From the sequence record NC_023593.1: a stretch of DNA of 64,000 nt; one strand, given 5' to 3'. The DNA is from Escherichia phage KBNP1711. Every line of letters begins with the position of its first letter. The stretch's first letter is position 1. This document shows, piece by piece, positions 8,544 to 54,271 of this stretch. The position numbers and the translations under genes are program-made. The notes under the pieces were generated by a model. That model did no database searches. It worked only from the letters and a program-made list of their open reading frames with translations, and was not told the origin of the DNA.

Positions 8544-9578
8544 ATGGCATATGGAATATGGACAAGACCTGTTGGTCCAGGTCCGGCGGCACCTGCTGAC
8601 ATTTACATCGATAGTGGTAGCACGTTTCCTCAACTCAAGAATAGAGTTAGCGGTAACTTTGCATTTAGTGGAAACATATGTGACCTCCCTATAAACGGGT
8701 GGGATGGAAGTGGTCAAATAGTTATTGTCCCGACAGGTTCTGTGGTATGGGAAAGATACATACCGCCTAATGTGACCTCAGACGTATACTGGATAAACAA
8801 TATCTCAGTTATTAATAACTCTACTTTTCGAGTTACTATGGATTATAATGTTAATGGGTGGGTCTTTGATATGGCTTTTAATGTATATCAGATATGGCCT
8901 AGAGCTAATAGAAACTACGGAATTACTTTTTCTAACACAGCTGATTACTTCTCTATTTCTGACTCTGGCACTGTTGGTCAGTGTATCTGGGCTTGGGAAG
9001 GTGATATAAACGGCTCTCTTCAGATACCAGATATTGGAGGTTTTGATATGAGCCGGGCAACTGTTTATGCAAACTGGAGTCACGGAGGGGCTGGGTTGTT
9101 GTATAACCCATCTAACAGAGTTGTTTATGTGTACCAAAACAGATCTCACGATAATAGTAACACAAACCAAACAGGGTCTATTGGTGGTGTTAGGATTGCT
9201 GTTTTCTGCGATGGTTCTGGAGTACCAACTCACAACGGTGGCCTAAATATCTTTTCCCCAAATGGGTCTCAGTGCGTATTCTCTACCTACAGAACCCCTT
9301 TTAGTGTTGAAGGGTTTATGCCTATGAGTGGAGGTAATACATCTCTGGCCTATCCAATGATACCACTGTCTTATGGGGCTGGGGCTATACGAGGAAGTGC
9401 TAGTGGTTGGTACTTTCAACACACAAGATCTCATATGATGAATGGATCTTCTTTTGGGACAGGGTATGGAAGAATGATATACTCTTGGTCAAATCAGTAT
9501 GATCTCGGTGGTGGGGGTGCTCTAGGATTAAGTATTCCGGTATTAGACGCCAAGAAGATTTTTAGAAGCATACAATAA
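8544..9578 (+). CDS. hypothetical virion protein
   Basis: 344-aa ORF tightly coupled to neighbours in the structural operon. Confidence 0.4.
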   Translation: MAYGIWTRPVGPGPAAPADIYIDSGSTFPQLKNRVSGNFAFSGNICDLPINGWDGSGQIVIVPTGSVVWERYIPPNVTSDVYWINNISVINNSTFRVTMDYNVNGWVFDMAFNVYQIWPRANRNYGITFSNTADYFSISDSGTVGQCIWAWEGDINGSLQIPDIGGFDMSRATVYANWSHGGAGLLYNPSNRVVYVYQNRSHDNSNTNQTGSIGGVRIAVFCDGSGVPTHNGGLNIFSPNGSQCVFSTYRTPFSVEGFMPMSGGNTSLAYPMIPLSYGAGAIRGSASGWYFQHTRSHMMNGSSFGTGYGRMIYSWSNQYDLGGGGALGLSIPVLDAKKIFRSIQ

Positions 9579-31288: not shown

Positions 31289-32029
31289 TTAATTACCACC
31301 CTTTTCCATAGCTTTAACGATTGCTTTACAGAAACCAGAACGAACAATATCATCTGAGTCGCCATCAACAATATCAGCGAACTCGTACAGGTCGTGATCG
31401 TCAATGAACTCAGTAGCCCAAGTAAGACCGCTCTCTCGGCCTTTCATATCGTGCTGGTTAGTGTCACCCATGCAGAACAGCTGGGATGTTTCACCCAAGC
31501 GAGTCATAATAGAGAATGCTTCATCTTTGGTTGTATTCTGGAACTCATCCACAATAACAATGGCATCATTGAAAGAGCGACCACGGAGATATTCCAGAGG
31601 CACAAACTCAATGTTCCCATTACCAAGCTGACATTCATAGAAACCTTTACCATACCGCTGAGTGATTACATCAACAATAGGCATCAGGTATGGTTCGAAC
31701 TTATCACGAAGCCCACCCGGAAGTAATCCAAGAGAGTTACCCATGCCAACAGAGGGTCGGCTAATGATAATCTTTTGAATCTTACCACTCTTCAGTGCAT
31801 CAATGACAGTAGAGGTGATGACGAACGTCTTACCACAGCCCGCAGGAGCGTCTGTGAACACCACTTGTTTAGTCTTGATAGCATTGAGTAGCTCAGATTG
31901 AAACTGATTCTGAGGGACCACTGGCTTCGCTAAAACAACCTCTTCATACTCACGCTTACCTTTCTTAGTGACTAAGGCTTCACGACGTAAATCTTTACGA
32001 GATTCTCTACGGGACTGTCTACGGCTCAT
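31289..32029 (-). CDS. phoH: PhoH-like ATPase
   Basis: Walker A FTDAPAGCGKTF and overall PhoH-like length and order. Confidence 0.8.
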   Translation of the reverse strand: MSRRQSRRESRKDLRREALVTKKGKREYEEVVLAKPVVPQNQFQSELLNAIKTKQVVFTDAPAGCGKTFVITSTVIDALKSGKIQKIIISRPSVGMGNSLGLLPGGLRDKFEPYLMPIVDVITQRYGKGFYECQLGNGNIEFVPLEYLRGRSFNDAIVIVDEFQNTTKDEAFSIMTRLGETSQLFCMGDTNQHDMKGRESGLTWATEFIDDHDLYEFADIVDGDSDDIVRSGFCKAIVKAMEKGGN

Positions 32030-32211
32030 TTTCGCTCTCCTAGCTCTTCGTAATTAAATACAGAGGTTCGACAATCTTTACATGTTGTTGTATAGACCCG
32101 AACATTAATGAACTTCTTGTTCTTCCCTTTGGTGGGTGAGCCTTTAGCAAGCTCGCTGATAACTTTAGAACTTAAGTTTAGGTTTGTTCCTTCACATTTA
32201 GAACACTTCAC
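32026..32211 (-). CDS. small zinc-ribbon protein
   Basis: CSKCEG...CKDC Cys pairs. Confidence 0.4.
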   Translation of the reverse strand: MKCSKCEGTNLNLSSKVISELAKGSPTKGKNKKFINVRVYTTTCKDCRTSVFNYEELGERK

Positions 32212-32378
32212 TCCGGCTCACCAACAGTAACATCCCATACAACTTGGGAGATGATGTTGTTAATCTGTTTGATTTGCTCGTGAGTCAGTTGCATACCTTT
32301 CATTTTCCGAGAGGCATTACTTCGTGCTCTTCGCTGACGATAGAAGTTATTCTTTTTAGTAGAGTGTAAGCTACTCAT
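32205..32378 (-). CDS. small basic protein (57 aa)
   Basis: ATGA stop/start overlap with upstream gene; translated by hand. Confidence 0.3.
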
Positions 32379-32560
32379 TTCACAACCTTAAATTTGAATG
32401 TTGTTGGGTGATAATAATGCAACCTGTTAATGGTGTGCTTTGTTTCAAGATATGTCCTACAGGAGTGACACATAACATGAGACAAACCAGTCACAGGATT
32501 GGGCTTAAAATTGATGATAGTCTTCTCTTTCTTACAGAAGCTACACACTTTCTTATCCAT
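32375..32560 (-). CDS. small zinc-ribbon protein
   Basis: CSFC...CHSC Cys pairs. Confidence 0.4.
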   Translation of the reverse strand: MDKKVCSFCKKEKTIINFKPNPVTGLSHVMCHSCRTYLETKHTINRLHYYHPTTFKFKVVK

Positions 32561-32708
32561 CTTCTCTCCTGCTAATCCTCTGAGTTGTGGGAACAGCAGT
32601 ATTCACATACTCCACAACAAGGACAAATCTCTACACTTGGGTCATATGCATCATCAACTGTCATCCCACACTTGGTGCAGAACACATCATCATCATCTTC
32701 TTCCAATA

Positions 32709-33365
32709 TTAATTCTCCAAAGTTTTCTTCAGAGCTGCCCACGAGATTGGGTAGAGTTTAGCCATCTCTTCATCCAGAGATTGAGCAAACACTCGAACTT
32801 CGTATTGAGCGTGAGAGGAGAGTCGCTGACGACACAACTCAAACCAGCCATACAAAGAACCAGTCCACACCCACTCAGTGATCATTCCCTGAGGAAGAAC
32901 AAATCGAGCTTGCTCTGGTGCAACGAATTCAATCAACTTGTCATATGCTGCTAGAGAGGCTTCATATGCATCGTTAATCAACATTAATGCTTCAGCTCGC
33001 TCTCCATCAATGAGTTGAACCCCTGAACCTGCATGGAGGTCCGAAGGTCTCGCAAAAATCTCTTTAGGGATGAAGACTTCAACTGCTCCATCTTTATACC
33101 TCCGGGACATTTCGTTCCACGAGAATCCAACCTGATGCTTGCCCAGCTGTCTCGCAATTGCGATAGGTGCTTTGCATCGGAAACTGACTTGCGGGTGCCT
33201 GAAAGGCGTGACATGCTTCTCTCTTGCGAGGAAGTTGATGAGACGTTCATCACGTTCATTTAAATCACCTTCACGGGTTACGCCAAAGGAAACTCGAGCT
33301 GCGTTTACTACGCTACGATCACTTCCCATAGCTTCGATTAATGTTGCTTGTAATTGTTCATTCAT
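32709..33365 (-). CDS. thyX: flavin-dependent thymidylate synthase (ThyX)
   Basis: FRHPQVSF...ARQLGKHQVGFSWNEMSRRY resembles the ThyX signature region. Confidence 0.75.
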   Translation of the reverse strand: MNEQLQATLIEAMGSDRSVVNAARVSFGVTREGDLNERDERLINFLAREKHVTPFRHPQVSFRCKAPIAIARQLGKHQVGFSWNEMSRRYKDGAVEVFIPKEIFARPSDLHAGSGVQLIDGERAEALMLINDAYEASLAAYDKLIEFVAPEQARFVLPQGMITEWVWTGSLYGWFELCRQRLSSHAQYEVRVFAQSLDEEMAKLYPISWAALKKTLEN

Positions 33366-33380
33366 CCGTGAATTTCCTTA

Positions 33381-33590
33381 TTAATATTCTTTTACATAAT
33401 AAACCACTAAGGTTCCCATCTCTGACAATGTTGATTTATGTAAGCTTACTTTACTATAAATCTTTGGAGCCATCTTAAGAGCCTTCTTAAAACGGCGAGC
33501 ATCTTTACGAGTAGCAAAGTGCTCTGTAACAGGTATAGACAGATCTTGGTAGATATAATATACCACCGTCCAATATTTTTTCATAATCAA
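33381..33590 (-). CDS. small basic protein, paralog family B
   Basis: KKYW...TRKDARRFKK...VYYV pattern shared with 35447..36083 genes. Confidence 0.4.
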   Translation of the reverse strand: MIMKKYWTVVYYIYQDLSIPVTEHFATRKDARRFKKALKMAPKIYSKVSLHKSTLSEMGTLVVYYVKEY

Positions 33591-33859
33591 ACACCTAGGG
33601 CAGTAGTTAAGAATGCTTTCAGGTTTGCTTCAGTCTGCATACCAGAGATGCTGTAGTGTGCACCACTGTTACGGTCAGGCACAACGAAAGCAGGGATACT
33701 TCGTACACCATACTTAACAGCTTGTTCACGACCATCACCTTCAAGGATATTAATCTCTTCCACTTCTACATCAAACTCCTTAACAACCTTCTCAAAGGTA
33801 GGAGCCATTGCTTTACATGGAGCACACTGATCACTATAAAACTTAATTACTTTACTCAT
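33587..33859 (-). CDS. thioredoxin-like protein (CAPC active site)
   Basis: KFYSDQCAPCKAMAP...GVRSIPAFVV; ATG 33859 with AAGGAA RBS. Confidence 0.6.
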   Translation of the reverse strand: MSKVIKFYSDQCAPCKAMAPTFEKVVKEFDVEVEEINILEGDGREQAVKYGVRSIPAFVVPDRNSGAHYSISGMQTEANLKAFLTTALGV

Positions 33860-34049
33860 TCTATTCCTTGTTAATAAACAGGTTGATATGATGCTGGGTA
33901 GCAGGAACAACAATAAAAGATTTATACTGACCTTTTGCTAAGTCATGAGCAATCTTCTTTGTCTGACCAAGACCCATCACACAGCCGCTAACGATAATGG
34001 CATGTGCTTGTAATTCTTCAGGTAGGTTTAGTTTCACTCTTTGGATTCC

Positions 34050-34235
34050 TTATAGCATACAAAGAATAATAACAAGAGGTAGTGTTATAGCAAAATGTAC
34101 CAGAACAACACTACCTAGCTTGATAGCTTTAACATCCTCTTCTGCTGGGTTTTCTTTAATTGCTAAATTTCGAGCTTTATATATAACAGTACCAACTATT
34201 AACGACCACACGGCCCACACAATCAGTGAAATCAT
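34050..34235 (-). CDS. small two-TM membrane protein (paralog pair)
   Basis: IVWAVWSLIVG...KENPAEE...AIKLGSVVLV pattern. Confidence 0.4.
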   Translation of the reverse strand: MISLIVWAVWSLIVGTVIYKARNLAIKENPAEEDVKAIKLGSVVLVHFAITLPLVIILCML

Positions 34236-34244
34236 ATCAAACCC

Positions 34245-34424
34245 TTATGCAGTCCACAGGTGGAGAAGGAAAGGAATCACAATAGTACAAACTACCAGAG
34301 CGATGCTGCCATGTTTAATAGCTTTAGCTTCACTTGGATTTTCTTTAAGCATCTGCTTCTGGGCCAGATAGACGATACCACCAATAATGATTGCCCAAAA
34401 AGACCATACGATTGCTGAAAACAT
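34245..34424 (-). CDS. small two-TM membrane protein (paralog pair)
   Basis: Internal Met of track ORF 34245..34631; IVWSFWAIIIG...KENPSEAKAIKHGSIALV. Confidence 0.4.
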   Translation of the reverse strand: MFSAIVWSFWAIIIGGIVYLAQKQMLKENPSEAKAIKHGSIALVVCTIVIPFLLHLWTA

Positions 34425-34485
34425 ATTCACATCCTTATAAAGAAGTTCGCCCCACCTCGGATTAGGAGACAGGGCGGAGGTTTGA

Positions 34486-35070
34486 TTAGTAAGACACGTC
34501 ACCACTGGAGTGGGACATGTTGCTCTTGACGAAGTAACAGAACTTTCCAAGACCTTCATTAATTTCTTGAAGCATACTCTGATCAACTGGATAGGTGCAC
34601 AAGTCTGAATCAAACTCGTCCATCTTCTCAATGATACACATAAGAGTCATGCACATGTCAGAAAGCATACCGTCCATGTCGAGATCAGCGTTACCTTCTC
34701 GGAACCAAGCACAACCAAGATAGCTACTAGCTGTTGCATCCACTTTAATGCAGTGATAACGCATTCGCTCTGCTACCCGATCACCAGTTTCACGAGCATA
34801 ATCTTCTAGTTCATCGAACATACCGTGAACACCTTGGAAACCAGCTCCAGAGACGTTCCAGTGATAGTTCTTTGATTTGATGTGTAGAAGTTCAAGGTTA
34901 GCCTGCACACCACACAGGATGTGCTCTAGGCTGTTACCGCTAATCAATTTATTCATTCCCTCTAGACGAGAGATAGAAGAGTCAGTTGTAGAGAATGGGT
35001 TGCTAGAACCCACTCGTGTCAGTTCAGGTAAGTCGAAGACATTATTATGCATTAGGTTCATCTCCTTCAA
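34486..35070 (-). CDS. Dps-like ferritin-fold protein
   Basis: YHWNVSGAGFQGVHGMFDELEDYARETGDRVAERM matches the Dps helix B/C signature. Confidence 0.5.
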   Translation of the reverse strand: MKEMNLMHNNVFDLPELTRVGSSNPFSTTDSSISRLEGMNKLISGNSLEHILCGVQANLELLHIKSKNYHWNVSGAGFQGVHGMFDELEDYARETGDRVAERMRYHCIKVDATASSYLGCAWFREGNADLDMDGMLSDMCMTLMCIIEKMDEFDSDLCTYPVDQSMLQEINEGLGKFCYFVKSNMSHSSGDVSY

Positions 35071-35374
35071 GCTCAGTAGAGTTAGCTACATTTCGTTCCA
35101 GATTTGAGATTACCTGTTGGGTGATAACGATGCAGTTCTGTGGGTCAACTGACTTAGAACGTCCCATCTCAGGGTCATACACCTTAACACGTTTTGCTGT
35201 AGAACCAGTTACCTGTAATACCTTGAGAAGATAACCCTGATTCCCGATAGACCATGCAACAACATCACGATTCTTGATGAATCGACCAAGCATATCACGA
35301 TGATAGAACTGCTGCATAACCTTTGATTTATTAATCTCTTCGGCTGGCGGAGCCACTTTACTCAAATCTAACAT
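35045..35374 (-). CDS. hypothetical protein
   Basis: 109-aa ORF. Confidence 0.4.
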   Translation of the reverse strand: MLDLSKVAPPAEEINKSKVMQQFYHRDMLGRFIKNRDVVAWSIGNQGYLLKVLQVTGSTAKRVKVYDPEMGRSKSVDPQNCIVITQQVISNLERNVANSTELEGDEPNA

Positions 35375-35446
35375 TTCACTCTCTCCTGTTTAACACAATA
35401 TTCTTATACTGTATATACATTTGAGAGTGATCATATCTACTACCAA

Positions 35447-35656
35447 TCAGTAGTAAATTACTTTAGACATAAAAGAACCAGTGTTAGGGTCTTCATGCCA
35501 GCGATGTATGTCAGCGCTTTTTACTATTGTGCCCAGAGTCTTCAACTGTTTCTTAGCAATACGAGCCTCTTTGCGAGTGTCAAACAATTTGATGTTATCT
35601 TTTCTCATATGTTGCTCAAGATCCCAAACAACATGAATAGCCCACATCTTTTTCAT
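35447..35656 (-). CDS. small basic protein, paralog family B
   Basis: Tandem array member. Confidence 0.45.
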   Translation of the reverse strand: MKKMWAIHVVWDLEQHMRKDNIKLFDTRKEARIAKKQLKTLGTIVKSADIHRWHEDPNTGSFMSKVIYY

Positions 35657-35871
35657 TAGTAATGTACCTTTCCGCTGATATAAATACGGCCTGAGGTATA
35701 CTCATAGCCCTTGAGAATCTTAACAGAGGTAGTGGAGCCATCGTTTAGTGCACAGATTGACTTCTTAAGATTGCGTGCATCTTCTCGTGTCTTCTGGTAG
35801 GTCATGGTCACACCCCCACTCTTCCACTCTGTTTTAACTAACCAAACTATTTTCATAAGACCTGCTCTCAT
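35656..35871 (-). CDS. small basic protein, paralog family B
   Basis: Tandem array member. Confidence 0.45.
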   Translation of the reverse strand: MRAGLMKIVWLVKTEWKSGGVTMTYQKTREDARNLKKSICALNDGSTTSVKILKGYEYTSGRIYISGKVHY

Positions 35872-36083
35872 TAGTAGTACACCTTGCTACCAGCCATAAA
35901 TGCCCCTGTTGAGTTTATCATGGCTTTGCTGATAGTAACTTTCTTACACCGTAAACATACCTTCCAGTTCTTTTTACAGATTCGAGCTTCTTGTCGAGTG
36001 TTACAAAAAATAGCCGAAGATATTTCTTGGGTGTTGTTATCATAAACACGAACACACCACTTTTTCATTGTTCCAAACTCCAC
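35871..36083 (-). CDS. small basic protein, paralog family B
   Basis: Tandem array member. Confidence 0.45.
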   Translation of the reverse strand: MEFGTMKKWCVRVYDNNTQEISSAIFCNTRQEARICKKNWKVCLRCKKVTISKAMINSTGAFMAGSKVYY

Positions 36084-36283
36084 TATCTGTCAACCGATTC
36101 AGGGACAAACTGCATTACACAGACCTGATTACGAGGAAGGTTTATTTCACAAGCGGCTTTTCTATCAGCAACCTTAGATGACGAGTTAGGGCCAATTTGA
36201 GCCATCATTAATCCCATAGCTAACATGCCGAGGATTACACCAATTGCTAAAGATGCTACAGTTTCTTGTTTCATCTTGATCAC
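36083..36283 (-). CDS. small membrane protein
   Basis: Hydrophobic ASLAIGVILGMLAMGLMMA segment. Confidence 0.35.
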   Translation of the reverse strand: MIKMKQETVASLAIGVILGMLAMGLMMAQIGPNSSSKVADRKAACEINLPRNQVCVMQFVPESVDR

Positions 36284-36827: not shown

Positions 36828-38108
36828 TTAATCTGTGATACTGTCGCTTTCGTCAACCCAGACTGGATTATTAATCTGTCCTAAACGACGAGCTGATGTT
36901 TCGTTAATAGAGTTAACCCCTGCTGTGCGAGGGTTTGTGTACCACGGTCGGACTATGCTACCCGACTGAATTGCTTGGTTTGCTTCTACATGCCACCTGT
37001 TTGATACCGTGTTGGCTTCAAAGTTACCACCCGCTCCACCACTGATAGGCACAGCTTGAGCTGGTTGATTTACTCGGTTAGTTCCTGCCCCAAAGGCTGC
37101 TGCAAATTCAGACACACGTGCACTAAATGAAGAACGAGCACGCTGAGGAGGTGATATATCATTTCGTGTATCTACTGCACGAGGCATAGCCCAAGTATCA
37201 TCTGTTGAGATATCAGGGGTAGGCTCTTGCTCTAGAGGTTGAAGATTAGCTGTCCATTGACTATTCAGTATACGATAGAAATCTGCACCATAACCACTTC
37301 GGATAACATCCTCTCTGACACCAAAGAAGCGACTGATATCCCCACCGATTCGGGCTAGTTTGTCATTGTATGCAGGTATGATTATTCCACCCTCTGTCAC
37401 TAAATCAGAGACACGACTTGTTGTAAGTGGTGAAGTGATCCAACAATAATAATCAGTAATGTGACCATCGTATCCGAAGAATGCAATCTCTGCATCAGGC
37501 CATTTCTTGTGGACATATGCCACTTCACGGTTAGAACAAACAGGGATTGCACCTGTTTCAGTCATTGCATAGAAGCCGTCAGAAGAGAACCAAAGTGAAT
37601 CTAGTGCTAAGAATCCACGACACACGCTCGGGAAAGTAGCAGCCAGCGCCCCAAGTGAGGTAGGTTCATTGAACATTAACTGAATCTTTGCACTCTGATA
37701 ATTAATCTCTAGGATATCTACAAAATTCAAAGAAGACCCAGGGGCATATTGATTATTACTTCGTCCAATATCCTGCTCAATGAGAAGAGATCTTGTTTCA
37801 ACACCATGAGCCTCTGCCCACTCTTTGAAATCTTCAAGGAACAAGCGAGCCTTAGCTCGCCACATCGACCGATCAGTTACAGACTGTCTCGGCAATCCAC
37901 CCTCTGTAGTGATGAGAAAGATATCAATGTCGTGAGGTTCACGCGTCTGAAAGATTGCATCCCTAACAGCACCACCTGCAATGATAGGGTACACACCATC
38001 AGGGATTAAACGGTTTGCAATCAACTCGTTAATTAACGTAAGACCAGACACAAGCTGCGGACTATCATCAATCCGACGACGAATTAGTGCATTAGGGATA
38101 TTATACAT
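36828..38108 (-). CDS. nucleotidyltransferase with CCA-adding-enzyme-like head domain
   Basis: IIAGGAVRDAIFQTREPHDIDIFL = GGxVRD...DxD motif of the Pol-beta-type tRNA nucleotidyltransferase/poly(A) polymerase head; long C-terminal region of unknown type. Confidence 0.5.
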   Translation of the reverse strand: MYNIPNALIRRRIDDSPQLVSGLTLINELIANRLIPDGVYPIIAGGAVRDAIFQTREPHDIDIFLITTEGGLPRQSVTDRSMWRAKARLFLEDFKEWAEAHGVETRSLLIEQDIGRSNNQYAPGSSLNFVDILEINYQSAKIQLMFNEPTSLGALAATFPSVCRGFLALDSLWFSSDGFYAMTETGAIPVCSNREVAYVHKKWPDAEIAFFGYDGHITDYYCWITSPLTTSRVSDLVTEGGIIIPAYNDKLARIGGDISRFFGVREDVIRSGYGADFYRILNSQWTANLQPLEQEPTPDISTDDTWAMPRAVDTRNDISPPQRARSSFSARVSEFAAAFGAGTNRVNQPAQAVPISGGAGGNFEANTVSNRWHVEANQAIQSGSIVRPWYTNPRTAGVNSINETSARRLGQINNPVWVDESDSITD

Positions 38109-38657
38109 TTACATTTTCCAATATAAAGATGGGGGGTCATTTGGGTCAAAGTTTGCAATATGGCAAAGATATTTATAAACCTTAACCGTTAAGTTTACGT
38201 CCTGTTCACAATAAGTAAACATGTCCTCTGTAAAGGCATCCCATGCTTCTTCCTGTTCACCGTAATCACCCTTAAGCTCTTCTAAGAACTCACCCCATTG
38301 CTTTAAGCCATGACCTCTTGGGCCATGTCTAGGGTCGCCTTTCGGATACTCAGGACTGTCACCAATACGGTCAGGTTTAAGATACCGACTCAGACATAAA
38401 GTGTCTAGGACGTTGAATTTGTAATCAATCAAATCAGGGTACATCTTCTTCAGAGCACATAAGTCGAAGTCAATAACGTTATGACCTACAACAACATCAG
38501 CCTCTGTAAGTTTCTTGATACCCTCTTCAATCTGGTGAGGGCGAAATCCCCACCGTTCACCAGTTGATATATCGAAGATAAAGATACACCATACGTTTGT
38601 GATATTGTCGTACAGTGCATCACTCTCAATATCAAATGCGTAGACTTTCTTTACCAC
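38109..38657 (-). CDS. 3'-5' exonuclease homologous to the proofreading domain of T7 DNA polymerase, encoded as a separate gene
   Basis: [36 protein letters not shown] align with the Exo I-III motifs of the T7 gp5 N-terminus. Confidence 0.75.
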
Positions 38658-54196: not shown

Positions 54197-54271
54197 TGGC
54201 GTCCCCACTAGGACTCGAACCTAGAATGGATTTTTAGAAGAAATCTGTTATATCCTTTTAACTATAGGGAC
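54197..54271 (-). tRNA. tRNA-Arg (anticodon UCU)
   Basis: Hand-folded cloverleaf: 7-bp acceptor stem, D stem GTTA/TAAC, anticodon stem GATTT/AAATC with loop CTTCTAA, T arm CTAGG-TTCGAGT-CCTAG, encoded CCA. Confidence 0.8.

Follow-up and report, generated by a model that had tools for sequence, protein, structure and literature searches.

Four small basic paralogs on the minus strand

The window analysed here, a 64,000-nt stretch of DNA from a phiEco32-like E. coli phage, carries on its minus strand four genes for small basic proteins, A, B, C and D, all of which match phrog_4939 over profile positions 1-67 or 2-67 of 67. Paralog A (33381..33584; 67 aa, MKKYWTVV...YVKEY; E 4.5e-25) is a separate copy in a variable slot between the thioredoxin and ThyX genes. 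Paralogs B (35447..35656; 69 aa, MKKMWAIH...KVIYY; E 3.4e-28), C (35656..35856; 66 aa, MKIVWLVK...GKVHY; E 1.3e-22) and D (35871..36068; 65 aa, MKKWCVRV...SKVYY; E 4.8e-26) follow one another in the order D-C-B. B is the ortholog of phi32_69 of phage phiEco32, and C and D are by position the orthologs of phi32_70 and phi32_71. A first-pass annotation of the window had proposed these four ORFs as a family of small basic paralogs with three copies in strict tandem, and this description holds: the ORFs are present where it had placed them, pI is 9.76-9.85 across the four products, and pairwise similarity among them is backed by shuffle tests as well as by the HMM matches. A six-frame HMM scan of the whole window picked out A, B, C and D alone; a further copy was looked for and none turned up. 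The products are cytoplasmic proteins of 65-69 residues; a signal peptide or membrane location was rejected for all four, the maximum 15-residue hydropathy being at most 0.84.

The start codon first assigned to B was kept, but those of A, C and D were probably set too far upstream, as judged from the local sequence and the lengths of orthologs. In A the likeliest start is the ATG at 33584. For D, the most likely start is the ATG at 36068, which has GGAG 9 nt 5' of it on inspection of the sequence, rather than the GTG at 36083; D orthologs are 65 aa long. C most likely starts at 35856, the alternative at 35871 being one that would overlap the D stop (TAATG). Ribosome-binding sites and TAATG start/stop overlaps are seen at these genes, and the start of B overlaps the stop of C in this way. 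The stop/start abutment described for the tandem is thus right in that one-base TAATG overlaps can be read at both D/C and C/B, but with a C start at 35856 the D stop and the beginning of C are 14 nt apart.

Several other small genes lie close by on the same strand. The pair of two-transmembrane (two-TM) paralogs noticed earlier is genuine: the genes at 34245..34424 (59 aa; phrog_9296 E 5.4e-32) and 34050..34235 (61 aa; phrog_9296 E 2.3e-30) each encode two hydrophobic segments, and their products are 43% identical. Directly upstream of D, and outside the four-paralog family, is a minus-strand gene for a single-TM protein of 63-66 aa (36083..36283; phrog_7508 E 8.9e-29; hydrophobic segment at residues 4-28), which has homologs in some kuraviruses only and, among eight loci compared, in IME267 alone.

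Promoters and transcription

Directly downstream of B lies a minus-strand AATGTATA element (35414..35421), a middle-promoter element of the phage-sigma (gp36-type) class that corresponds to P68 of phiEco32. A P68-type element is found at the same place in all nine related loci examined, phiEco32 included, and marks the boundary between the D-C-B unit and the one to which A belongs. The AATGTATA octamer occurs 9 times in the window versus 2.9 expected. A second minus-strand copy, at 38102..38109, is a candidate promoter by its consensus only; no candidate lies closer on the upstream side of the nucleotidyltransferase - dCTP deaminase - TM66 - D-C-B unit. The promoter consensus has been given as tAATGTAtA (PMC8948821), P68 has served as a middle promoter in published work (PMC12276001), and the corresponding part of the phiEco32 genome is assigned to the middle class (PMC8948821; PMC9965538), the expression class of genes 69-71 being taken from secondary descriptions. 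We infer middle-phase transcription for all four genes, D-C-B as the end of the unit carrying the nucleotidyltransferase and dCTP deaminase genes and A as part of a P68-driven middle unit. All four sit among replication and nucleotide-metabolism genes.

A lineage-restricted family with two to four copies per genome

The four proteins are anciently diverged copies of one lineage-restricted phage family, PHROG 4939, which is limited to E. coli/Shigella Gordonclarkvirinae, has 2-4 copies per genome and forms 35 clusters at 50% identity among 1.84 billion proteins. It is conserved at full length over about 97 phage genomes and many metagenomic contigs. Identity between paralogs is 22-33%. The 51 database matches sort cleanly by best match into A, B, C and D groups, and for each of the four, proteins from the same slot are closer to one another than to the paralogs, as expected of orthologs. 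B is 100% identical to KBNP1711 gp071 and 97% identical to the phiEco32 copy (phi32_69), and is present in 93 phage records. A match in the C slot occurs in 97 of 97 kuravirus-like phage records, the C allele itself being at least 99% identical in phage 4E8 alone; D is 98% identical to the 4E8 copy. The genes phi32_69/70/71 of phiEco32 and SU10_069/070/071 belong to PHROG 4939 and have the same gene order as this window, which has four copies versus three in each of those phages. The copies in the window do not differ in kind from PHROG 4939, although the C allele is rare. Both phi32_69 and phi32_70 are among the genes common to phiEco32-subgroup phages (supplement, PMC8948821).

The family genes are real and conserved, but have already been catalogued as 'hypothetical' and are therefore a modest lead; at present PHROG 4939 is an ordinary "conserved hypothetical" family. 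Pfam gave scattered single-member noise only (four proteins, E up to 1; 38 members, E up to 10), and NCBIfam gave no match for the family. PADLOC, a collection of defence and not anti-defence proteins, had no match for A, B, C or D at E up to 1, and there was no significant sequence or fold match to any PDB chain. No discussion of the family genes or their paralogy was found in the literature covered, a scope outside which the primary phiEco32 papers fall (PMC2587145, PMC3275717).

The order dCTP deaminase gene, tandem, P68 promoter, gp68 homolog is kept in phiEco32, SU10, EP335, PAS59, IME267, 4E8 and four metagenomic contigs. The A slot is far less stable. The copies in NJ01 and 172-1 match A at 94-95% identity, but the gene in this slot of 4E8, otherwise the closest phage, reaches only 39%; phiEco32 and SU10 have no gene in the slot, and in EP335 and PAS59 an HNH endonuclease occupies it. 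Identity of the dCTP deaminase is 88-98% at six of the eight loci, and that of ThyX (69-99%) and thioredoxin (45-98%) varies without regard to which A allele is present. Two proteins, P0044 and P0046, are of B type with a C-type C-terminus. As seen in these sequences, the history of the family appears to be one of old duplication, followed by cassette-like allele replacement and copy-number change (2-4) between phages.

The 'diversifying pressure' once suggested for the family is not borne out, as pairwise NG86 dN/dS is below 1 in the measurable pairs. D gives 0.03, C 0 to 0.32 and B 0.21-0.70; the upper end of the B range stems from very few substitutions, and few pairs overall are neither saturated nor nearly identical. 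Each ortholog group also keeps strongly conserved residues of its own. Neighbour genes mostly fall at 0.03-0.26; the Dps-like/L009 pair gave 1.48, which we judge to be an artefact of a gapped codon alignment. Because dN/dS is below 1, the family is under purifying, perhaps somewhat relaxed, selection, and positive selection was rejected for the usable pairs.

Conserved residues and predicted fold

The central motif, at first written T-[RK]-x-[ED]-A-R-x-x-K-K, stands except for its second residue, which is always R, giving T-R-x-[ED]-A-R-x-x-K-K; TR..AR..K is found in 123 of 128 family members. The C-terminal Tyr pair proposed with it exists as YY in B and D, but is HY in C and EY in A, the conserved feature being the terminal Tyr (118 of the 128 proteins). 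Over 38 diverse members pI ranges from 9.47 to 11.10. In an alignment of 38 sequences with a mean column identity of about 31%, W5, T27, R28 and R32 never vary and A31 and K35 hardly do, and paralogs that are about 25% identical all keep the core and motif residues unchanged. W5, A31 and the C-terminal Tyr form a small hydrophobic core common to all paralogs; T27 is the helix N-cap, and R28, R32, K35 and K36 are the basic helix residues in all of them. On a helical wheel these basic residues, together with a conserved K/R on strand 3, would form one ridge along the helix flank. Strand residues of the sheet are conserved inside each ortholog group and different between groups. As for the N-terminal MKK, what is under selection there may be translation initiation and not the protein itself. 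A zinc site in the Cys-rich paralog D was considered and rejected, as only C5, C22 and C31 are conserved among D orthologs and they make no zinc motif.

AF2 models of B (pLDDT 83.8) and C (pLDDT 87.0) have the same beta-beta-alpha-beta-beta order. Independent BFVD kuravirus models of matching length and low identity superpose with TM 0.80-0.87, among them WFI101126 (67 aa, 29% identity) and an SU10 protein (69 aa, 23% identity). The predicted fold of the family is a four-stranded antiparallel sheet with a single helix packed against it.

Comparison with known proteins

Outside the family, the nearest resemblance is to gp065 of Cronobacter phage GAP52 and related 73-80 aa proteins of 7-11-like phages (Grimontviridae), which have the W-x-V strand and the D/P-T-R-x-x-A-R helix start in common with it. 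The hhalign comparison gave E 3.7e-4 over 49 columns at a probability of 36%, the GAP52 gp065 family consisting of six near-identical members and being too shallow for a strong profile; Foldseek aligned the BFVD model of the GAP52 protein with the family at TM 0.70 and E 0.019. Its gene lies in a replication module and adjoins DNA polymerase I. Unlike the family, gp065 has 80 aa, ends in KKAR instead of Tyr and is single-copy. From these likenesses, homology between the two groups is plausible.

The family profile also gave a sub-threshold match to the RNP1-strand/helix-2 unit of both RRMs of CELF1 (E 0.024; per-domain i-E 6.7 and 130, neither significant), a weak hint of an RNA-binding-like unit. 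RRM and other ferredoxin-like sandwiches (CELF1 RRMs, bS6) are beta-alpha-beta-beta-alpha-beta, whereas the family is beta-beta-alpha-beta-beta with one helix; it has no RNP1 or RNP2 motif, and none of 38 members matched a Pfam RRM at E up to 10. A pattern similar to that of the family, W-x-V ... F-x-T-K-x-E-A ... I-H-x-x-G, characterises DUF2188 (PF09954), and the 'F-x-T-x-x-E-A' strand-to-helix motif is shared by DUF2188 and the RNase H1 N-terminal domain. Both candidates were rejected: PF09954 was reported for none of 38 members at E up to 10, and Cauli_VI, for the RNase H1 N-terminal domain, was matched by one member only (E 0.15) in the 38-member Pfam scan. We treat 'F-x-T-x-x-E-A' as a generic capping motif.

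Similar in size are AcrIIC3, the p56 Ung inhibitor and T4 Dmd, which like the family are phage-specific alpha+beta mini-domains. The gp79 protein of phiEco32 is likewise a small protein of the same phage group; it is a transcription factor, an example of how kuravirus mini-proteins can be potent regulators, and is built of four alpha-helices (PMC12276001). A relation to gp79 was rejected since gp79 is all-helical and the family is mainly beta with one helix, and the family HMM gave no match to the gp79 ortholog expected in the window by synteny.

Possible functions

The early guess of 'nucleic-acid or protein-binding regulators' fits the uniformly high pI and the Arg/Lys positions conserved on the helix; searches of Pfam, NCBIfam, PADLOC and the PDB found no homology between the family and characterised binders. 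The reading we tentatively prefer, while holding it at somewhat less than an even chance, is that the proteins are accessory nucleic-acid-binding factors of the replication/nucleotide-metabolism module rather than enzymes. The common basic ridge would bind a polyanionic ligand, most likely the phosphate backbone of replication-phase DNA or RNA; the paralog-specific sheet faces would provide a separate target or partner for each copy; and the family would evolve by duplication, recombination between copies and cassette replacement. Against this reading, an acidic surface on a protein would be just as good a ligand for the ridge, which might also serve to hold the C-terminal carboxylate of the same chain; the CELF1 match is not significant for either domain and comes with a different topology; and cassette-like allele turnover with variable copy number is commoner in host-interaction genes than in core replication factors.

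A close rival, though on balance unlikely, is that the paralogs serve host takeover or anti-defence, each of them a small protein that binds a host target of its own and inhibits or modulates it. Candidate targets would be nucleases, components of restriction or other defences, and factors of replication or transcription, and the family would diversify because these targets differ between E. coli strains. Small size, lack of enzymatic motifs, lineage restriction and 2-4 copies per genome all suit such a role, as do very divergent alleles in one slot between flanks that are 78-100% identical, recombination between paralogs (P0044, P0046) and sheet surfaces that are paralog-specific yet conserved. 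Gordonclarkvirinae are moreover unusually resistant to restriction-modification, and they have no known inhibitor or DNA modification (PMC11990801). Yet the genomic location is the middle (replication) region and not the far-right stretch of early host-takeover genes (PMC9965538), and dN/dS below 1 gives no signal of positive selection in the measurable pairs. Neither PADLOC nor Pfam yielded a match. Some classical anti-restriction proteins, such as Ocr and ArdA, are acidic DNA mimics, whereas this family is strongly basic. The feature most conserved is the one common to all paralogs, which argues for a common ligand and so against inhibitors of different host proteins.

That the proteins are accessory subunits or regulators of phage nucleotide-metabolism or DNA-modification enzymes, for example a scaffold for dNTP synthesis, we consider improbable. 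Their partners would be the dCTP deaminase, the nucleotidyltransferase-like protein, thioredoxin, ThyX or the Dps-like protein, and the tandem does always follow the dCTP deaminase gene, as A always lies between the thioredoxin and ThyX genes; the inferred cotranscription with these enzyme genes fits too, and the TAATG coupling suggests co-ordinated expression. Against this, copy number and alleles vary while the dCTP deaminase stays 88-98% identical (six of eight loci), variation in ThyX and thioredoxin does not track the A allele, some phages have nothing or an HNH endonuclease in the A slot between unchanged flanks, and the possible distant relative in GAP52 adjoins DNA polymerase I, not these enzymes. 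It is very improbable that the ORFs have little or no function, whether as selfish or decaying ORFs in intergenic hot spots or as annotation artefacts. The A slot is indeed a hot spot that also takes homing endonucleases, and the family has no known function or domain, but full-length conservation in about 97 phage genomes and metagenomic contigs, dN/dS below 1, core and motif residues that stay invariant across paralogs at about 25% identity, confident fold predictions (B, C) and the presence of phi32_69 and phi32_70 among the phiEco32-subgroup common genes (PMC8948821) all speak for functional proteins.

Kuraviruses are frequent phage-therapy candidates and are now in the BASEL collection, yet they lack a known function for about two thirds of their genes. 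The PHROG 4939 family is multi-copy, is kept in essentially every member of the group and lies beside the dCTP deaminase and nucleotidyltransferase locus, which is the proposed basis of the striking restriction resistance of kuraviruses. Four ortholog slots, a basic motif and a predicted fold make its members compact and readily testable targets, and with genes of about 200 bp deletion designs are viable. If they are nucleic-acid or host-factor binders, they would add a new small-protein fold to phage accessory factors. It is a long shot, but they might even be a new class of basic mini-protein that binds the phage's replicating DNA or a host nuclease and so contributes to the broad restriction-modification resistance of Gordonclarkvirinae. 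Separate paralogs and alleles would then cover separate host defences, and the anti-restriction principle would be new, a basic protein that coats or blocks instead of an acidic DNA mimic.

Four small basic paralogs

The paralogs A (33381-33584), B (35447-35656), C (35656-35856) and D (35871-36068), all on the minus strand, are real, conserved and lineage-restricted small basic alpha+beta proteins that represent four old paralogs within a replication and nucleotide-metabolism region. The four ORFs are present as the first-pass annotation described them, and their paralogy is borne out: each matches phrog_4939 ("unknown function") over its full length (E 1.3e-22 to 3.4e-28), pairwise identities are 22-33%, and an HMM built from the four picks up exactly these among the 1003 six-frame ORFs of the window. 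They are basic, again as first described, with pI values of 9.76-9.85 and net charges of +6 to +10, and 38 of 38 diverse relatives are basic too (pI 9.47-11.10). A search for hydrophobic segments found none in any of the four.

Not every detail of the initial description stood. Only B (69 aa) keeps its proposed start codon; reading of the DNA together with ortholog lengths moves the start of A to the ATG at 33584 (MKKYW, 67 aa), that of D to 36068 (MKKW, 65 aa, with GGAG 9 nt upstream) and that of C, probably, to 35856 (MKIVW, 66 aa). The strict stop/start abutment reported for the D-C-B tandem holds, as TAATG overlaps at the D/C and C/B junctions, provided the longer reading of C is used. The proposed C-terminal tyrosine pair occurs in B and D and is lacking in A and C; the invariant C-terminal feature is a tyrosine as final residue, found in 118 of 128 family proteins, while the central motif TR..AR..K is present in 123 of them.

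Databases already list these sequences as hypothetical proteins, B matching KBNP1711 gp071 exactly, and group them as one PHROG. Added here are the explicit sorting into four ortholog slots, revised start codons, the common motif and terminal tyrosine, a confident predicted fold without a specific known relative, the placement of the genes relative to the middle promoter P68, and the finding that the A slot behaves as a cassette. Although no surprise to a phage genomicist, the four proteins make a clean and easily testable target set.

Genomic setting and promoters

A 4-kb query around the paralogs has matches in 97 phage records, every one of them from an Escherichia or Shigella phage; the closest is Escherichia phage 4E8 (Gordonclarkvirinae, Kuravirus), with 90.7% identity across 83% of the query. 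Gene order in the window is that of phiEco32: primase/helicase, polymerase exonuclease subunit, nucleotidyltransferase-like protein, dCTP deaminase, small genes, Dps-like protein, thioredoxin, ThyX and PhoH, with the primase/helicase-to-PhoH genes on the minus strand throughout. A lies between the thioredoxin gene (33587-33859, minus) upstream and ThyX (32709-33365, minus) downstream.

Secondary sources assign this part of the genome to the middle class (PMC8948821; PMC9965538). The phage sigma factor gp36 recognises the phiEco32 middle/late promoter element tAATGTAtA (PMC8948821), and the gp36-type core AATGTATA has nine copies in the window where 2.9 are expected. One copy (35414-35421, minus) sits in the 72-nt spacer after B and before the gp68 homolog, is kept at the equivalent place in nine of nine related loci, phiEco32 included, and is the counterpart of P68, which served as a middle promoter in PMC12276001. 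Another (38102-38109) lies upstream of the nucleotidyltransferase gene, so D-C-B would close one transcription unit and A would fall in the next. The copies other than P68 are at 8880, 14117, 23611, 23684, 31068, 38102, 61780 and 62074; several fall on the borders of gene clusters, where the other middle and late promoters of the phage may lie.

Several neighbouring features deserve mention. The phi32_68 homolog just downstream of P68 (35045-35374, minus, 109 aa, phrog_10984) is without known domain and among the most uniformly conserved genes of the stretch, at 91-93% identity in all eight loci compared. The nucleotidyltransferase gene (36828-38108, minus, 426 aa), called CCA-adding-type in other annotations and without a Pfam or NCBIfam match here, is strongly mosaic: identity is 96% with the EP335 copy, but only 29-42% with those of other kuraviruses, parts of which cannot be aligned to it. 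A terminator-like hairpin (34448-34476, minus; 11-bp stem with seven G-C pairs, weak T tract) separates the Dps-like gene from the first two-TM gene.

Predicted fold and conserved residues

The AlphaFold2 model of B, with the family alignment as input (mean pLDDT 83.8, pTM 0.67), comprises a strand (residues 2-11), a short turn, a second strand (20-25), a helix (28-40) and two further strands (45-56 and 60-63). C, the most divergent paralog, is modelled with the same order of elements (pLDDT 87.0), and independent BFVD models of length-matched, low-identity kuravirus proteins, among them WFI101126 (67 aa, at 29% identity) and one from SU10 (69 aa, 23%), superpose at TM 0.80-0.87. Searches of Pfam, NCBIfam and PADLOC with the family matched nothing, and the best hit among PDB sequence profiles, the unit of RNP1 strand and helix 2 in both CELF1 RRMs, reached only E 0.024, neither domain being significant alone.

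In 38 sequences whose columns average 31% identity, W5, T27, R28 and R32 are invariant and A31 and K35 nearly so; K36 and the terminal tyrosine are also invariant within a closer sequence set. Judging from helical periodicity, the hydrophobic stripe A31, A34, L38 and L41 should face the sheet, with R28, R32, K35/K36 and K39 probably on the flank beside it. Also common to the paralogs is a lysine or arginine in strand 3, at the H-[KR] position. The strands include residues with at least 90% conservation inside an ortholog group that differ between groups (for example WLV..EW / TYQKTRED / SVKILK / KVHY in the C group; WCVR.YDN.TQ / TGAFMAG.KVYY in the D group). The picture suggested by this pattern is of one common site and four surfaces that differ from one another, each conserved in its own right.

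Distribution

Searching 5.8 billion clustered proteins with a profile gave 51 clusters, all falling into the four ortholog groups, and HMMER, run exhaustively against 1.84 billion representatives (50% identity), returned only 35 at E <=0.001, with lengths of 47-82 aa and no fusion to another domain. Adding these to a second profile search gave 88 clusters. All retrieved genomic contexts are kuravirus-like with unchanged synteny. By tblastn against 50,697 phage records, B is found in 93, a C-slot match in 97 and A in 39, all of them E. coli or Shigella phages; the A copies form no fewer than three highly divergent allele classes, with 80-95%, 52% and about 37-40% identity to that of the window.

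Twelve related loci scanned with an HMM hold two to four copies per genome, and only in two positions: two or three in tandem after the dCTP deaminase gene, and none or one between thioredoxin and ThyX. By position in the annotated phiEco32 record, phi32_69, phi32_70 and phi32_71 are B, C and D; the first two are listed among the genes common to the phiEco32 subgroup (supplement, PMC8948821). GAP52 gp065, an 80-aa protein whose gene adjoins DNA polymerase I in a 7-11-like phage, may be a distant relative, the likeness being suggestive and not established (hhalign E 3.7e-4, probability 36%; Foldseek against its BFVD model, TM 0.70, E 0.019).

Selection and cassette turnover

The diversifying pressure initially proposed finds no counterpart in NG86 dN/dS ratios against related loci, where no positive selection is evident: D gives 0.03, C 0 to 0.32 and B 0.21-0.70, the higher B values reflecting very few substitutions. 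For neighbouring genes the ratio is mostly 0.03-0.26; one Dps-like pair reaches 1.48, in our view because of gaps in the codon alignment. The family itself may be under somewhat relaxed selection.

Variation is mosaic. Between the window and 4E8, C is 100% and D 98% identical, but the gene in the A slot only 39%. Thioredoxin and ThyX of SU10 and of two other related loci (L002 and L005) are 97-99% identical to the window's, yet the slot is empty in SU10 and A is only 34-40% identical in the other two. EP335 and PAS59 carry an HNH_3 homing endonuclease there, and where phiEco32 and SU10 lack a gene a 15-nt spacer remains. The 3' junction is identical wherever it is readable (window, phiEco32, SU10, L002, L005): TAATAAGGA[A/T/C]ATTCACGG, followed by the ThyX ATG. 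The slot (33366-33586 in the window; also in related loci L008, L009, L010 and L012) behaves as a cassette hot spot. Two B-type database proteins (P0044 and P0046) carry a C-type C-terminus (...RGSYISGDVHY), which indicates recombination or gene conversion between paralogs. Some relatives have an HNH_3 endonuclease gene inserted after the dCTP deaminase gene and ahead of the tandem (6953-7462 in L002, 7367-7876 in L005), making this another point adjoining family members where homing endonucleases insert.

Possible functions

Because the paralogs have a common invariant basic site and uniformly high pI, they may well bind one polyanionic ligand, most simply nucleic acid, and the paralog-specific sheets would then confer differing specificities or partners; we favour this reading tentatively. 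A close rival, itself rather doubtful, makes them host-takeover or anti-defence factors that bind proteins; cassette turnover and copy-number variation fit it. So does the resistance of Gordonclarkvirinae to restriction-modification, which has no known mechanism (PMC11990801); the suspected cause is the dCTP deaminase and nucleotidyltransferase locus (PMC11990801), which adjoins the family. That the proteins serve as accessory subunits of neighbouring enzymes is improbable, and that the ORFs are non-functional is very improbable indeed.

Elsewhere in the window, a lone tRNA-Arg (anticodon TCT; 54197-54271, minus) should by position belong to the early region. Downstream of ThyX are three more small Cys-rich ORFs (32375-32560, 32026-32211 and 32572-32742, all minus), two of which resemble CxxC...CxxC zinc ribbons. 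The product of 32375-32560 has a Pfam match to Lar, a restriction-alleviation protein, at E 0.0034 and 18 bits, below the cut-off of 28.6; since these phages resist restriction in a way not yet explained, this match may be worth attention.
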